IMG/VR virus record: IMGVR_UViG_2778261577_000003
DNA from: a virus
Taxonomy: Duplodnaviria; Heunggongvirae; Uroviricota; Caudoviricetes
Reading direction: 5' to 3' (one strand)
Length of the DNA: 6,427 bases
Under the pieces are notes generated by a model, which saw only the letters and a program-made list of their open reading frames with translations, did not search any database and had not been told where the DNA came from. The position numbers and the translations under genes were made by a program. Positions 332 through 6,427 of this stretch are shown piece after piece. Each line of letters opens with the position of its first letter. Within the stretch, counting starts at the first letter, position 1.

Positions 332-332
332 C

Positions 333-419
333 CTGACCACAAAAACATTCATTACTGACCGCATGATTAAAGTCTTCCTCGGTCGTGATGGTTTACCTGT
401 AAAGGCGGAGTCATGGTGA
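333..419 (+). pseudogene. 3' remnant of a prophage ORF truncated by the IS1 insertion; kilR-like by synteny with K-12 Rac, sequence identity not verified
   Basis: The reading frame is open from the IS1 junction to the TGA at 417..419, and no start codon for the original gene remains. Its stop overlaps the ydaE ATG (TGATG), as expected for a translationally coupled upstream gene. In K-12 Rac the gene upstream of ydaE is kilR. Confidence 0.35.
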
Positions 420-589
420 TGACTAAGAAAATAAAATGTGCTTACCACCTTTGCAAAAAAGACGTTGAAGAAAGCAAAGCTATTGAAAGAATGCTTCACT
501 TCATGCACGGGATTTTATCAAAAGACGAACCGAGAAAATATTGCAGTGAAGCTTGTGCCGAAAAAGACCAGATGGCACATGAACTTTAA
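419..589 (+). CDS. ydaE: Rac prophage small Cys-rich protein YdaE (56 aa)
   Basis: Translation MTKKIKCAYHLCKKDVEESKAIERMLHFMHGILSKDEPRKYCSEACAEKDQMAHEL. GGAG at 407..410 lies 8 nt upstream of the ATG at 419. An alternative in-frame ATG at 413 has no usable SD spacing. Stop is TAA at 587..589. This ORF is below the size cutoff of the supplied ORF track. Confidence 0.75.
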   Translation: MTKKIKCAYHLCKKDVEESKAIERMLHFMHGILSKDEPRKYCSEACAEKDQMAHEL

Positions 590-663
590 TTAATTGACTA
601 TTCGAAACTGAATTTATGCCAGAAATGGCAGGTATTCGCTCAACCTTAATTAAGGAGAAAAAC

Positions 664-939
664 ATGATTACCAATTATGAAGCCACTGTTGTAACTACCG
701 ATGACATTGTTCACGAGGTGAATCTGGAAGGAAAGCGCATTGGCTACGTAATTAAAACAGAAAATAAAGAAACCCCATTCACTGTGGTTGATATCGATGG
801 TCCATCAGGCAACGTAAAAACACTTGATGAAGGTGTCAAAAAAATGTGCCTGGTGCATATCGGAAAGAATCTGCCCGCAGAAAAAAAAGCCGAATTTCTG
901 GCAACTCTAATTGCAATGAAATTAAAAGGTGAAATCTGA
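664..939 (+). CDS. racC: Rac prophage protein RacC (91 aa)
   Basis: Translation from MITNYEATVVTTDDIVHEVNLEGKRIGYVIKTENK... matches RacC as I recall it. A strong SD (AGGAG at 653..657) lies 6 nt upstream of the ATG at 664. The ORF-track start at 616 is an unsupported upstream extension. Confidence 0.85.
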   Translation: MITNYEATVVTTDDIVHEVNLEGKRIGYVIKTENKETPFTVVDIDGPSGNVKTLDEGVKKMCLVHIGKNLPAEKKAEFLATLIAMKLKGEI

Positions 940-944
940 AAGAA

Positions 945-969
945 ATAGCCTGCGTATGGCGCAGGCTAT
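945..969 (+). other. Perfect 10-bp-stem / 5-nt-loop hairpin (ATAGCCTGCG-tatgg-CGCAGGCTAT) in the racC-recE intergenic region
   Basis: Direct base-pairing check: 945-969, 946-968 ... 954-960 are all Watson-Crick. It lies 6 nt after the racC stop. No U-tract follows, so it is not a canonical intrinsic terminator. Confidence 0.45.
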
Positions 970-1040
970 GAACAGTGTGTATCCGGCAAGATCATTCACT
1001 GAACAAAACGAATTTTAATCTGAGTTGAGGTTAAAAAACA

Positions 1041-1484
1041 ATGAGCACAAAACCACTCTTCCTGTTACGGAAAGCGAAAAAATCATCCGGTGAACCTGAC
1101 GTCGTCCTGTGGGCAAGCAACGATTTTGAATCGACCTGTGCCACTCTGGACTACCTGATCGTTAAGTCAGGTAAAAAACTGAGCAGCTATTTTAAAGCTG
1201 TTGCCACGAATTTTCCTGTCGTTAATGACCTGCCCGCTGAAGGTGAGATCGATTTTACCTGGAGTGAACGCTATCAACTCAGCAAAGACTCCATGACATG
1301 GGAACTAAAACCGGGAGCAGCACCAGACAACGCTCACTATCAAGGCAATACCAACGTCAACGGCGAAGACATGACTGAGATTGAGGAGAATATGCTACTC
1401 CCAATTTCTGGCCAGGAACTGCCCATTCGTTGGCTTGCTCAACACGGCAGCGAAAAACCGGTAACGCACGTTTCACGCGACTGA
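1041..1484 (+). CDS. recE: RecE N-terminal fragment (147 aa) ending at the premature TGA
   Basis: ATG at 1041 with GAGG at 1027..1030. Translation [30 protein letters not shown]... matches the RecE N-terminus. It terminates at TGA 1482..1484. Confidence 0.7.
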
Positions 1485-1721
1485 CTCCAGGCATTACACA
1501 TTGCTCGGGCTGAAGAACTACCGGCTGTTACTGCCCTGGCTGTTTCCCACAAAACCAGCCTGCTCGACCCGCTGGAAATTCGCGAACTCCACAAACTGGT
1601 TCGTGACACTGACAAAGTTTTCCCTAATCCTGGTAATTCAAACCTGGGACTGATAACTGCTTTTTTCGAAGCATACCTGAACGCTGACTACACCGATCGA
1701 GGACTGCTGACAAAAGAGTGG

Positions 1722-3641
1722 ATGAAGGGTAATCGTGTTTCACACATCACTCGCACGGCTTCCGGTGCTAATGCTGGCGGCGGAAACCTCACCGATCGCG
1801 GCGAAGGTTTCGTACACGATCTGACGTCACTGGCGCGCGACGTAGCCACTGGCGTACTGGCCCGTTCAATGGATCTGGACATCTATAACCTTCATCCGGC
1901 ACACGCTAAACGCATTGAGGAAATTATCGCTGAAAATAAACCGCCCTTTTCTGTTTTCCGCGACAAATTCATCACCATGCCTGGCGGGCTGGATTATTCC
2001 CGCGCCATCGTGGTTGCGTCCGTAAAAGAAGCACCAATTGGGATCGAGGTCATCCCCGCGCACGTCACTGAATATCTGAACAAAGTACTGACTGAAACCG
2101 ATCATGCCAACCCTGATCCGGAAATCGTGGATATTGCCTGCGGTCGCTCCTCTGCCCCGATGCCGCAGCGAGTAACAGAAGAAGGAAAACAGGATGATGA
2201 AGAAAAACCGCAACCATCTGGAACAACGGCAGTTGAACAGGGAGAGGCTGAAACAATGGAACCGGACGCAACTGAACATCATCAGGACACGCAGCCGCTG
2301 GATGCTCAGTCACAGGTAAATTCTGTTGATGCGAAATATCAGGAACTGCGGGCAGAACTCCATGAAGCCCGGAAAAACATTCCATCAAAAAATCCTGTCG
2401 ATGACGATAAATTGCTTGCTGCATCACGTGGTGAATTTGTTGACGGAATTAGCGACCCGAACGATCCGAAATGGGTAAAGGGGATCCAGACTCGCGATTG
2501 TGTGTACCAGAACCAGCCAGAAACGGAAAAAACCAGCCCAGATATGAATCAACCTGAGCCAGTAGTGCAACAGGAACCGGAAATAGCCTGCAATGCCTGC
2601 GGCCAGACTGGCGGGGATAACTGCCCTGACTGTGGTGCGGTGATGGGCGACGCAACATACCAGGAAACATTCGATGAAGAGAGTCAGGTTGAAGCTAAGG
2701 AAAATGATCCGGAGGAAATGGAAGGCGCTGAACATCCGCACAATGAGAATGCTGGCAGCGATCCGCATCGCGATTGCAGTGATGAAACTGGCGAAGTCGC
2801 AGATCCCGTAATCGTAGAAGACATAGAGCCAGGTATTTATTACGGAATTTCGAATGAGAATTACCACGCGGGTCCCGGTATCAGTAAGTCTCAGCTCGAT
2901 GACATTGCTGATACTCCGGCACTATATTTGTGGCGTAAAAATGCCCCCGTGGACACCACAAAGACAAAAACGCTCGATTTAGGAACTGCTTTCCACTGCC
3001 GGGTACTTGAACCGGAAGAATTCAGTAACCGCTTTATCGTAGCACCTGAATTTAACCGCCGTACAAACGCCGGAAAAGAAGAAGAGAAAGCGTTTCTGAT
3101 GGAATGCGCAAGCACAGGAAAAACGGTTATCACTGCGGAAGAAGGCCGGAAAATTGAACTCATGTATCAAAGCGTTATGGCTTTGCCGCTGGGGCAATGG
3201 CTTGTTGAAAGCGCCGGACACGCTGAATCATCAATTTACTGGGAAGATCCTGAAACAGGAATTTTGTGTCGGTGCCGTCCGGACAAAATTATCCCTGAAT
3301 TTCACTGGATCATGGACGTGAAAACTACGGCGGATATTCAACGATTCAAAACCGCTTATTACGACTACCGCTATCACGTTCAGGATGCATTCTACAGTGA
3401 CGGTTATGAAGCACAGTTTGGAGTGCAGCCAACTTTCGTTTTTCTGGTTGCCAGCACAACTATTGAATGCGGACGTTATCCGGTTGAAATTTTCATGATG
3501 GGCGAAGAAGCAAAACTGGCAGGTCAACAGGAATATCACCGCAATCTGCGAACCCTGTCTGACTGCCTGAATACCGATGAATGGCCAGCTATTAAGACAT
3601 TATCACTGCCCCGCTGGGCTAAGGAATATGCAAATGACTAA
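1722..3641 (+). CDS. recE: RecE C-terminal ORF (639 aa from the first internal Met after the nonsense codon); contains the acidic linker and the C-terminal 5'-3' dsDNA exonuclease domain
   Basis: Longest ORF in the window, in frame with the N-terminal fragment. Whether it is translated from the ATG at 1722 (weak SD-like AAGAG just upstream) is inference. C-terminal RecE fragments are known to retain exonuclease and recombination activity. Confidence 0.5.
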
Positions 3642-4443
3642 GCAACCACCAATCGCAAAAGCCGATCTGCAAAAAACTCAGGGAAACCGTGCACCAGCAG
3701 CAGTTAAAAATAGCGACGTGATTAGTTTTATTAACCAGCCATCAATGAAAGAGCAACTGGCAGCAGCTCTTCCACGCCATATGACGGCTGAACGTATGAT
3801 CCGTATCGCCACCACAGAAATTCGTAAAGTTCCGGCGTTAGGAAACTGTGACACTATGAGTTTTGTCAGTGCGATCGTACAGTGTTCACAGCTCGGACTT
3901 GAGCCAGGTAGCGCCCTCGGTCATGCATATTTACTGCCTTTTGGTAATAAAAACGAAAAGAGCGGTAAAAAGAACGTTCAGCTAATCATTGGCTATCGCG
4001 GCATGATTGATCTGGCTCGCCGTTCTGGTCAAATCGCCAGCCTGTCAGCCCGTGTTGTCCGTGAAGGTGACGAGTTTAGCTTCGAATTTGGCCTTGATGA
4101 AAAGTTAATACACCGCCCGGGAGAAAACGAAGATGCCCCGGTTACCCACGTCTATGCTGTCGCAAGACTGAAAGACGGAGGTACTCAGTTTGAAGTTATG
4201 ACGCGCAAACAGATTGAGCTGGTGCGCAGCCTGAGTAAAGCTGGTAATAACGGGCCGTGGGTAACTCACTGGGAAGAAATGGCAAAGAAAACGGCTATTC
4301 GTCGCCTGTTCAAATATCTGCCCGTATCAATTGAGATCCAGCGTGCAGTATCAATGGATGAAAAGGAACCACTGACAATCGATCCTGCAGATTCCACTGT
4401 ATTAACCGGGGAATACAGTGTAATCGATAATTCAGAGGAATAA
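3634..4443 (+). CDS. recT: RecT single-strand annealing protein (269 aa)
   Basis: Translation [41 protein letters not shown]...VIDNSEE matches RecT. The ATG at 3634 is preceded by AGGA at 3622..3625 and overlaps the recE stop (ATGACTAA, 8-nt overlap). The ORF-track start at 3577 lies inside recE and is rejected. Confidence 0.9.
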
Positions 4444-4451
4444 TTCAGCCT

Positions 4452-4488
4452 GGCGGTGTAATGCACCGCCAACTTGAAATATTTTTTA
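4452..4488 (+). terminator. GC-rich 7-bp-stem hairpin (GGCGGTG-taatg-CACCGCC, 4452..4470) followed 12 nt later by a T6 run (4483..4488), between recT and ralR; possible weak terminator or attenuator
   Basis: Stem pairing verified by eye. The T-tract is not directly adjacent to the stem, so terminator function is uncertain. Confidence 0.3.
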
Positions 4489-4499
4489 TGAGAAAAATT

Positions 4500-4694
4500 A
4501 TGAGATATGACAATGTTAAACCATGTCCATTTTGTGGTTGTCCATCAGTAACGGTGAAAGCCATTTCAGGATATTACCGAGCGAAGTGTAACGGATGCGA
4601 ATCCCGAACCGGTTATGGTGGAAGTGAAAAAGAAGCACTCGAAAGATGGAATAAACGAACCACTGGAAATAATAATGGAGGTGTTCATGTATAA
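4500..4694 (+). CDS. ralR: RalR / Lar restriction-alleviation protein (64 aa), also described as a type I toxin
   Basis: Translation MRYDNVKPCPFCGCPSVTVKAISGYYRAKCNGCESRTGYGGSEKEALERWNKRTTGNNNGGVHV, with a Cys-rich zinc-ribbon-like motif. Alternative in-frame starts exist at 4488 and 4461; 4500 gives the 64-aa product I recall for K-12. Confidence 0.8.
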   Translation: MRYDNVKPCPFCGCPSVTVKAISGYYRAKCNGCESRTGYGGSEKEALERWNKRTTGNNNGGVHV

Positions 4695-4896
4695 AATTAC
4701 CGCCACTATTGAAAAGGAAGGTGGCACTCCTACTAACTGGACAAGATATTCAAAATCTAAACTAACGAAATCAGAATGCGAAAAAATGCTCTCAGGTAAA
4801 AAAGAAGCAGGCGTTTCCAGAGAGCAGAAAGTAAAACTGATAAATTTTAATTGCGAGAAACTTCAGTCCTCGAGAATTGCATTGTATTCAAATTAA
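4687..4896 (+). CDS. ydaC: Rac prophage protein YdaC (69 aa)
   Basis: Translation MYKITATIEKEGGTPTNWTRYSKSKLTKSECEKMLSGKKEAGVSREQKVKLINFNCEKLQSSRIALYSN. GGAGG at 4677..4681 lies 5 nt upstream of the ATG at 4687. The start overlaps the ralR stop (ATGTATAA). Confidence 0.8.
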   Translation: MYKITATIEKEGGTPTNWTRYSKSKLTKSECEKMLSGKKEAGVSREQKVKLINFNCEKLQSSRIALYSN

Positions 4897-4907
4897 AACT
4901 TCATAGC

Positions 4908-4923
4908 TGATTATTAATAATCA
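4908..4923. promoter_or_regulatory. Perfect 16-bp palindrome TGATTATTAATAATCA upstream of xisR-intR; candidate operator or protein-binding site
   Basis: Perfect dyad symmetry read directly from the sequence. It lies in the 78-bp ydaC-xisR intergenic region, about 50 bp upstream of the xisR ATG, and overlaps AT-rich -10-like hexamers. Confidence 0.4.
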
Positions 4924-4974
4924 ACATCGGGCGTCAATTTCAGTCTAACATTGGCGCCTGCCAGAGGTGATGCG

Positions 4975-5190
4975 ATGGCACAAGTAATCTTTAATGAAGA
5001 GTGGATGGTTGAATACGGCCTGATGCTTCGCACTGGTCTGGGGGCCAGACAAATTGAAGCATACCGCCAGAACTGTTGGGTGGAGGGCTTCCACTTCAAA
5101 CGAGTATCTCCTTTAGGTAAGCCAGACAGCAAACGAGGGATTATCTGGTACAACTATCCAAAGATAAATCAGTTTATCAAAGACTCATGA
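4975..5190 (+). CDS. xisR: Rac prophage excisionase XisR (YdaQ), 71 aa
   Basis: Translation [79 protein letters not shown] at 4964..4969. It sits immediately upstream of the integrase, the typical xis-int arrangement. Confidence 0.85.
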
Positions 5191-5191
5191 T

Positions 5192-6427
5192 ATGTCTAAA
5201 TTACCAACAGGTGTCGAGATTAGAGGTAGATACATTCGCATCTGGTTCATGTTTCGAGGAAAACGATGTCGGGAAACATTAAAAGGCTGGGAGATTACAA
5301 ACAGTAATATTAAAAAGGCCGGAAATTTAAGAGCGCTGATAGTTCATGAAATAAACTCCGGTGAATTTGAGTATTTAAGACGTTTTCCCCAGTCCAGCAC
5401 TGGGGCAAAAATGGTGACAACGAGAGTCATAAAAACGTTCGGAGAGCTTTGTGATATCTGGACAAAAATTAAAGAGACAGAGTTAACAACAAACACAATG
5501 AAGAAAACGAAATCACAATTAAAAACACTCAGAATAATAATTTGTGAAAGTACCCCGATATCACATATTCGTTATAGCGATATCTTAAACTACCGGAATG
5601 AACTGCTGCATGGAGAAACGCTTTACCTGGATAATCCAAGATCCAACAAAAAAGGAAGAACCGTGCGCACAGTTGATAACTATATCGCCCTGCTCTGTTC
5701 GCTGTTGCGTTTTGCGTATCAGTCGGGATTTATATCAACCAAACCATTTGAAGGAGTAAAAAAATTACAGCGAAACAGAATAAAGCCTGATCCGTTATCT
5801 AAAACAGAATTCAATGCATTAATGGAAAGTGAAAAAGGACAGAGCCAGAACTTGTGGAAATTTGCCGTTTACTCAGGACTTCGTCACGGGGAACTGGCAG
5901 CTCTGGCGTGGGAGGATGTGGATCTCGAAAAGGGAATAGTGAATGTCAGAAGAAACCTGACGATACTTGATATGTTCGGTCCCCCAAAAACAAATGCCGG
6001 GATCCGAACAGTAACACTACTGCAGCCTGCTCTTGAAGCACTGAAGGAGCAATACAAACTGACCGGGCATCATCGCAAAAGCGAAATCACCTTTTATCAT
6101 CGGGAGTACGGCAGAACCGAAAAGCAAAAACTGCATTTTGTTTTCATGCCCAGGGTGTGTAACGGAAAACAAAAACCTTATTACTCGGTAAGCAGTTTGG
6201 GGGCAAGGTGGAATGCAGCAGTAAAACGTGCTGGTATTCGCCGCCGTAATCCGTACCATACGCGGCATACTTTTGCCTGCTGGCTGTTGACGGCAGGAGC
6301 GAACCCGGCATTTATAGCCAGCCAAATGGGGCATGAAACTGCGCAGATGGTGTATGAAATTTACGGTATGTGGATTGATGACATGAACGACGAACAGATA
6401 GCCATGTTGAATGCGCGGTTATCGTAG
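5192..6427 (+). CDS. intR: Rac prophage integrase IntR (tyrosine recombinase, 411 aa)
   Basis: Translation MSKLPTGVEIRGRYIRIWFMFRGKRCRETLKGW... carries tyrosine-recombinase signatures (LRHGE; HTRHTFA; C-terminal MGHETAQMVYEIYG with the probable catalytic Tyr). The ATG at 5192 follows the xisR TGA with a 1-nt gap. The TAG stop is the last codon of the window. Confidence 0.9.
   Translation: MSKLPTGVEIRGRYIRIWFMFRGKRCRETLKGWEITNSNIKKAGNLRALIVHEINSGEFEYLRRFPQSSTGAKMVTTRVIKTFGELCDIWTKIKETELTTNTMKKTKSQLKTLRIIICESTPISHIRYSDILNYRNELLHGETLYLDNPRSNKKGRTVRTVDNYIALLCSLLRFAYQSGFISTKPFEGVKKLQRNRIKPDPLSKTEFNALMESEKGQSQNLWKFAVYSGLRHGELAALAWEDVDLEKGIVNVRRNLTILDMFGPPKTNAGIRTVTLLQPALEALKEQYKLTGHHRKSEITFYHREYGRTEKQKLHFVFMPRVCNGKQKPYYSVSSLGARWNAAVKRAGIRRRNPYHTRHTFACWLLTAGANPAFIASQMGHETAQMVYEIYGMWIDDMNDEQIAMLNARLS

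Follow-up and report, generated by a model that had tools for sequence, protein, structure and literature searches.

The CII protein of phage lambda binds direct repeats of the form TTGC-N6-TTGC. The lambda promoter pI is a recombination-gene promoter separate from pL read-through; its −35 element is poor and is overlapped by the site of the lysogeny-establishment activator, and it lies inside xis and serves Int alone (PMC2951348). In the prophage Rac of Escherichia coli, the transcription factor YdaT is an analogue of lambda CII and has been footprinted at the start of ydaT on the box ATGATT-N6-AATCAA (ATGATTCATGAAAATCAA) (Wons et al. 2025, PMC11879457). The YdaT homologue of CP-933P recognizes the box TTGATT-N6-AATCAA (Prolic-Kalinsek et al. 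2023, PMC9986795), and the Rac and CP-933P proteins cross-bind each other's boxes (PMC11879457, PMC9986795). YdaT activates PRE933P (PMC8630535) as well as PracR4 and rcsA (PMC11879457), and its reported targets are the immunity region, the start of its own gene and the host rcsA promoter. Two other kinds of promoter are of interest for comparison. At the class II promoters of CRP and FNR, a palindromic site centred at −41.5 replaces the −35 element under strict spacing. At the sigma-H int promoters of Staphylococcus aureus prophages, a short conserved untranslated element upstream of the recombination genes places integration and excision under an alternative sigma factor (PMC2869324).

The window analysed here, a stretch of DNA of 6,427 nt, matches, over bases 332–6427 and in reverse orientation, the left end of the cryptic Rac prophage of E. 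coli K-12 with 99.95% identity, and window positions convert to K-12 coordinates (NC_000913.3) as 1418427 minus the window position. The genes are arranged in the order ydaE, racC, recE, recT, ralR, rcbA (ydaC; 4687–4896), xisR (ydaQ; 4975–5190, plus strand), which encodes a DUF1233 excisionase, and intR (5192–6427, plus strand), which encodes a tyrosine integrase. The xisR start codon (4975–4977) is preceded by a Shine–Dalgarno sequence GAGG at 4965–4968, and the antitoxin sRNA RalA is encoded antisense to rcbA at 4693–4871 on the minus strand (Rfam RF02694, 225 bits; annotated as b4714). Positions 1–331 hold an IS1 end (insA fragment, minus strand) in place of the kilR side of Rac, with identity to K-12 starting at 332, and recE carries a nonsense codon at 1482–1484 (TGA where K-12 has GGA, Gly148), leaving open reading frames at 1041–1484 and 1722–3641.

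The palindrome upstream of xisR and its conservation

The sequence at 4908–4923, TGATTATTAATAATCA, is identical to its own reverse complement over 16 bp, in agreement with the original prediction of a perfect dyad symmetry at this place; the symmetry cannot be extended because C at 4907 and A at 4924 remain unpaired. Its assignment to the intergenic region between ydaC and xisR is likewise correct, as the palindrome falls inside the 78-nt spacer from the rcbA/ydaC stop codon (4894–4896) to the xisR ATG at 4975. It is the sole perfect 16-bp palindrome in the 6,427-nt window, and no second copy with up to 3 mismatches was found there. By chance, 0.07–0.09 such palindromes are expected per window, and approximately 7% of shuffled windows contain one. 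The palindrome alone is therefore just borderline unusual, and its weight comes from comparative data.

The original prediction tied its claim to conservation in Rac-like prophages that keep xisR-intR, and in these the palindrome is neither lost nor degenerate: the exact 16-mer occurs in 82 of 86 Rac-type loci, three of the others being changed in the spacer only and one in a half-site. It is intact also in the most diverged E. coli copy that we fetched (94.6% identity over 651 nt). In one IMG/VR contig the 16-bp Rac palindrome occurs again, without mismatch, approximately 3.5 kb upstream of xis, probably as a local duplication.

For a wider comparison we assembled 260 loci with XisR homologues (52–100% identity) from species genomes, including Escherichia, Shigella, Citrobacter, Pseudescherichia, Leclercia, Enterobacter and Klebsiella, and from IMG/VR, which yielded 124 distinct 100-nt upstream regions. 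A scan of IMG/VR with the Xis alignment returned identical Rac copies only and was repeated with diverged Xis queries. The pattern TGAT-N8-ATCA (at most one mismatch) is present in 113 of the 124 unique regions. In 209 of the 260 loci the distance from the start of the box to the xis ATG is exactly 67 nt, as it is in Rac, within flanks that are unalignable between lineages. The half-sites TGATT and AATCA are kept while the 6-bp centre is free, reading ATTAAT in Rac and TTGAAT, TCGAAT, TTTGAT, ATCCCT or ATCACC elsewhere; a different clade has the half-sites TGATA(T) and (A)TATCA. Given this free centre beside retained half-sites, perfect symmetry over 16 bp and AT-richness of the centre are traits peculiar to Rac. 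In these alignments the conserved object is the pair of half-sites at fixed spacing, which matches the definition of the YdaT box.

The notion that the palindrome is a chance occurrence with no function, which the frequency of such palindromes among shuffled windows might suggest, is barely credible given that the position, the half-sites and the spacing to a downstream −10 hexamer (see below) are conserved across genera despite diverged flanks.

The far flank was read in one locus from outside E. coli, that of Leclercia (L013), where ttcA follows int as it does in Rac. In the non-Rac loci L011–L016 and L020–L022 (~9930–9940), the TGA that ends a small upstream open reading frame (79 aa in L013) falls within the left half-site of the box. 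The loci L245–L251 have neither a box nor a YdaT-family gene within 10 kb, and their distinct xis upstream region contains TTGC-like repeats, possibly a lambda-CII-type arrangement.

Match to the YdaT box and association with YdaT-family genes

Together with one flanking base on each side, the palindrome forms an 18-bp inverted repeat resembling a YdaT box, CTGATT-ATTAAT-AATCAA (4907–4924). Compared with the footprinted YdaT box, it agrees at 10/10 positions of the core TGATT-N6-AATCA and at 11/12 positions of the full box, and the single mismatch is at position 1, where the two footprinted boxes themselves differ. The site thus shares its half-sites, the unspecified 6-bp spacer and the prophage family with the box at the Rac ydaT start and with the CP-933P operator OM (TTGATT-N6-AATCAA), and differs from both in being a perfect 16-bp palindrome and in lying upstream of xisR-intR and not in the immunity region.

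Operators often occur in sets, and the search for further copies that had been proposed on this ground was productive. In 25 kb of the K-12 chromosome spanning Rac, the exact core TGATT-N6-AATCA occurs three times compared with 0.06 expected, a count reached in 0 of 100 shuffles. The three sites are located upstream of xisR, at the ydaT start, where the site is the verified YdaT box, and inside ydaW. The ydaT gene (b1358) lies 7.2 kb from the box upstream of xisR, that is, the same element encodes YdaT. The ydaW box (L002 12120–12135, equal to NC_000913.3 1423119–1423134) keeps its half-sites with a variable spacer among Rac variants. No TAnnnT hexamer was found at +37 or +38 of it on either strand, which leaves it without class II promoter geometry; it might parallel lambda paQ or act as a looping partner.

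A box upstream of xisR is not mentioned in the YdaT papers or in the other literature that we searched. The palindrome is most likely a previously unreported site, here predicted, for YdaT binding. The earlier suggestion of a binding site for a dimeric protein is borne out to the extent that the site appears to behave as the target of a dimeric or tetrameric protein.

The box and the gene tend to occur together. In the loci that extend 9 kb or more upstream, the box is present in 181 of the 182 that have a YdaT-family gene within 10 kb, and 10 loci, representing about 3 lineages, have neither a box nor a detectable YdaT-family gene within 10 kb. The family includes a short form of 137–165 aa, whose box covers the start codon, as it does in K-12, and a long form of 178–190 aa, with the box 49 nt inside the coding region (for example, L013 1173–1739 and L019 886–1458); the L019 protein scores 38.5 bits against PF06254. 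In lambda cII, +49 in the coding region is the position of pRE. Since the +49 site of the long forms is part of a coding sequence, its conservation may partly reflect the protein.

The half-sites of the box at xis also match those of the box at the ydaT-family gene in the same locus. Both boxes are of the TGATT/TGATT type in Rac, L019, L216, L217 and L244, the two 16-mers are identical in L013, and unusual pairs of half-sites are mirrored within a locus (TGATC/TGAAC in L008; TGATT/TGAAA in L192 and L206). For the 15 dereplicated combinations, the agreement between the two boxes scores 133, as against 122.7 ± 2.9 in permuted pairings (p = 7.5e-4). One group (L232, L235, L236 and L260) is discordant, combining a TGATT-type box at xis with a TGATA/TGAGC-type site at the ydaT gene.

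This covariation bears on two alternative explanations. One is that the box is recognized by another phage protein borne on the same module, for example by XisR in autoregulation. XisR binds DNA and may dimerize (PMC4632033), excisionases repress int promoters in other prophages, such as TorI at intS (PMC2951348), and, with every locus in the survey having been found via Xis, Xis always accompanies the box. The type of box, however, tracks the box at the YdaT gene and not the similarity of Xis. The Xis proteins of L013 and L019 are approximately 80% identical (counted from the alignment), yet their boxes are of the TGATA and TGATT type, respectively, and each matches the box at its own ydaT-family gene, whose products are only 38% identical. 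Loci with identical XisR, moreover, keep the box beside different, cross-binding types of YdaT (L005). We regard recognition by XisR or a similar protein as highly improbable.

Under the other alternative, a nucleoid protein of the host (H-NS, IHF or Fis) would use the AT-rich palindrome to silence or bend the control region of xisR-intR; an IHF- or Fis-like site had been part of the original prediction. H-NS has been reported to affect Rac excision (PMC4632033), 14 of the 16 bases of the Rac copy are A or T, and AATCAA and AATCAG fit the WATCAR part of the IHF consensus. The TTR part of that consensus is absent on both strands, however, and relatives have centres that are not AT-rich (ATCCCT, ATCACC, TCGAAT) whereas the position of TGAT-N8-ATCA is fixed. 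What is conserved is TGAT...ATCA at constant spacing rather than AT-richness, and the covariation of the half-sites is with a phage gene rather than the host. A nucleoid-protein site is thus improbable, and the IHF or Fis reading is not favoured.

Other host regulators were rejected as well. For PdhR, the gSELEX peak is in recT-recE, not at the palindrome, and no PdhR box is listed for this peak. Comparisons by eye with consensus sequences showed unfit spacing or half-sites for LexA, Fur, FNR, ArgR and IHF; to suit Fur or FNR, TGAT and ATCA would have to be separated by N7 or N4, where the palindrome has N8.

Predicted promoters around the box

The claim that a promoter serves xisR-intR independently of upstream read-through gains support from the comparison, in which the box is tied to a predicted promoter. 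In an alignment of 14 lineages, the only other invariant columns are T, A and the final T of a TAnnnT hexamer. This hexamer follows in all 113 box-bearing regions, starting 37 nt after the start of the box in 98 of them and 38 nt in 15, Rac included. The most frequent versions are TATACT (72 regions), TACTGT (14) and TAACAT (12, Rac among them), with TATAGT, TATAAT and others also present. In Rac, the predicted −10 hexamer TAACAT occupies 4946–4951 on the plus strand, with TC at −14/−13 and without a −35 element; among the upstream sequences examined by eye, none showed a usable −35 element or an extended −10.

The transcription start of xisR-intR is predicted 7 nt downstream of the −10 hexamer, at 4957–4959 on the plus strand of the window (approximately NC_000913.3 1413469, minus strand). 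A start at about 4958 would be 17 nt upstream of the xisR ATG, with the intact GAGG in between. With starts so placed, the box is centred at −41.5, and in Rac at −42.5 (4915.5), which is the position of a class II activator. The distance of 38 nt from the box start to the conserved −10 hexamer puts the palindrome over the −35 region, in the manner of an activator site, and not over the −10 as an operator would be. The original prediction was mistaken in this geometry, the −10 hexamer being outside the palindrome, and also in naming RacR as a candidate regulator: the RacR operator, (T/A)TAGGC-N3-GCCTA(T/A) (PMC9638921), bears no resemblance to the palindrome. The hexamers it pointed to, TATTAA (4912–4917) and TAATAA (4915–4920), do exist. 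As promoter elements they are not conserved, the centre being TCGAAT, ATCCCT, ATCACC or TTGAAT in relatives.

A RacR-type repressor operator over these internal −10 hexamers, or a −10 element shared by two face-to-face promoters (AATAAT reads on both strands, with TTGACG as the leftward −35), is an alternative reading. Our consensus scan does find TTGACG-16-AATAAT on the minus strand (10/12) and TTAAAA-17-AATAAT on the plus strand (9/12). The minus-strand candidate, a sigma-70-like promoter at 4910–4937, would place its −10 within the palindrome, and its −35 would fall in the 5' arm of the hairpin described below. It is Rac-specific, and its start would precede the mapped 5' end of RalA at 4871 by about 32 nt; this 5' end is inconsistent with a start near 4903. 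A leftward promoter of the TTGACG type could not be recognized in Leclercia L013, the one non-Rac upstream region that was inspected by eye for it. More generally, the internal hexamers and TTGACG were seen in Rac-type sequences only, whereas the half-sites and the downstream TAnnnT hexamer extend across genera. The strong increase of xisR and intR upon RacR depletion (see below) agrees with control by RacR, but the sequence of the RacR operator is unrelated, and we consider these readings improbable.

The predicted rightward promoter may be of the sigma-S type, which is marked by a −10 near TATACT, C at −13 and a dispensable −35. TATACT, the hexamer in 72 of the 113 regions, is reportedly a −10 sequence preferred by sigma-S, and Rac has TC-TAACAT in a promoter that is known here by prediction. 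Sigma-S promoters commonly lack a conserved −35 element (PMC3141248), and an activator would therefore not be strictly required. The level of xisR mRNA increases 110-fold in stationary phase in an RpoS-dependent manner (Liu et al. 2015, PMC4632033), and xisR and intR increase approximately 100-fold upon depletion of RacR, with ydaST derepressed (PMC11014345). Both observations fit the predicted promoter, although read-through alone could produce the increase following the loss of RacR. In the Rac of K-12 the −10, TAACAT, is the weakest in the family and stands one base further from the box, which suggests that the K-12 promoter may be decayed.

On the opposite strand, a leftward −10 hexamer TACAAT is found at 4881–4886 in the Rac lineage only: a minus-strand TAnnnT exactly 37 nt from the box occurs in 13/13 unique Rac-type sequences and in 0/100 others. 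The start predicted from it, at 4874, differs by 3 nt from the 5' end of RalA that published primer extension placed at 4871, and the centre of the box is at −41.5 relative to this start. The symmetric site may therefore serve both promoters. The signal of ralA and ydaC increases 40–70-fold when RacR is depleted and YdaT is made (PMC11014345), for which causes other than the YdaT box are possible.

The −10 hexamer and the predicted start of the rightward promoter are enclosed by a GC-rich hairpin on the plus strand (4928–4960), with arms at 4928–4938 and 4950–4960 and 11 pairs, 2 of them G.U. Scored sequence by sequence, all 73 unique regions form such a hairpin with 8 bp or more, built from 41 different arm sequences; its register drifts between lineages and there is no RNAalifold consensus. 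The hairpin RNA is more stable on the plus strand in 48 regions and less so in 22 (p = 4e-5), and the plus strand accounts for 98 G.U pairs. A role as intrinsic terminator was rejected because no U tract is present, the stem being followed by TT or TG only, and the scan of 4400–5400 detected no terminator-like sites. With the predicted start inside it, the complete hairpin would be confined to read-through transcripts.

It is tempting to combine these features into a bidirectional class II site, at which YdaT would activate both xisR-intR and RalA, with the hairpin acting as a new kind of gate that separates promoter-initiated from read-through xis mRNA. We offer this scheme tentatively and think it unlikely to hold in full. 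If true, it would connect site-specific recombination and a type I toxin-antitoxin pair with the choice between lysis and lysogeny.

A candidate YdaT-activated promoter for excisionase and integrase

These results lead us to propose, with a probability of roughly 0.6, that the palindrome is the core of an 18-bp YdaT site that activates a dedicated xisR-intR promoter, the Rac-family counterpart of lambda pI. Whereas the motif match, its conserved position and spacing, and the co-occurrence and covariation with ydaT-family genes are shown by the sequences, we infer that YdaT binds here, where transcription starts and whether regulation is positive or negative. In this proposal YdaT, a tetrameric helix-turn-helix regulator in the role of lambda CII, would, once made, bind at 4907–4924, centred 42.5 bp upstream of the predicted start. 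The bound protein would recruit RNA polymerase in a class II manner to a sigma-S-like promoter that has no −35 element and uses TAACAT as its −10. Excisionase and integrase would then be supplied independently of read-through from the recET-ralR-rcbA operon, and in the Rac lineage the same site would possibly also drive the leftward RalA promoter. The invariant spacing between the box and the −10 favours activation over simple occlusion, hence our reading of the site as an equivalent of pI.

One published observation counts against a YdaT-activated xisR-intR promoter: overexpression of YdaT did not induce excision of Rac in MG1655, whereas overexpression of YdaS did (PMC11014345). It agrees with YdaT acting at this site as a repressor, or as a looping or architectural element, that keeps xis-int (or xis) off during the establishment of lysogeny, and the authors of that work see YdaT as cooperating with RacR in maintenance (PMC11014345). 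Such a role would draw on the same motif and the same covariation as activation does. The 18-bp box reaches 3 bp into the −35 position, and the tetramer has two DNA-binding dimers, can hold two duplexes and could bridge to other boxes. A repressor, however, needs mere overlap with the promoter, whereas the distance of 37 or 38 nt from the box to the −10 in 113 of 113 regions is a class II signature. No −35 element that could be occluded was seen in the regions inspected, and all promoter effects of YdaT cited here are activation. We therefore consider repression or looping unlikely and retain activation by YdaT as the preferred reading.

The predicted xisR promoter would resemble lambda pI as a promoter of recombination genes that is separate from upstream read-through, with a poor −35 overlapped by the putative site of a lysogeny-establishment activator. 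In the strict sense the site is not of the lambda pI type. It is the inverted repeat TGATT-N6-AATCA and not a direct repeat as bound by CII, the promoter lies upstream of xis and not inside it, and its −10 looks sigma-S-like, a further difference from pI. Promoted from upstream of xis, Xis and Int would be made together, and the logic of lysogeny would differ from that of lambda. Within Rac, the box at xisR is by prediction promoter-proximal (−42.5), whereas the box at the ydaT start acts on PracR4 from a distance of ~190 bp (PMC11879457). The predicted geometry resembles that of CRP and FNR class II promoters, with which the site shares a palindrome in place of the −35 and strict spacing, although YdaT, a POU-like helix-turn-helix tetramer, belongs to another protein family. 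The sigma-H int promoters of S. aureus prophages offer a further parallel, given that xisR of Rac is RpoS-dependent (PMC4632033); they involve another sigma factor and other organisms, and no CII-like box is known there.

The box is conserved across Rac-type prophages inserted at ttcA, at least in Escherichia and Leclercia, and gives a place to look for the RpoS-dependent xisR promoter that was inferred in 2015. A CII-type promoter upstream of xis in Rac-type phages would pose the question of what determines the direction of recombination. Our analysis also suggests one shared control element for the RalA antitoxin and the recombination genes. The second job of CII, driving the promoter of the integrase gene, has had no counterpart in the literature on YdaT, and the site upstream of xisR is a candidate for it.
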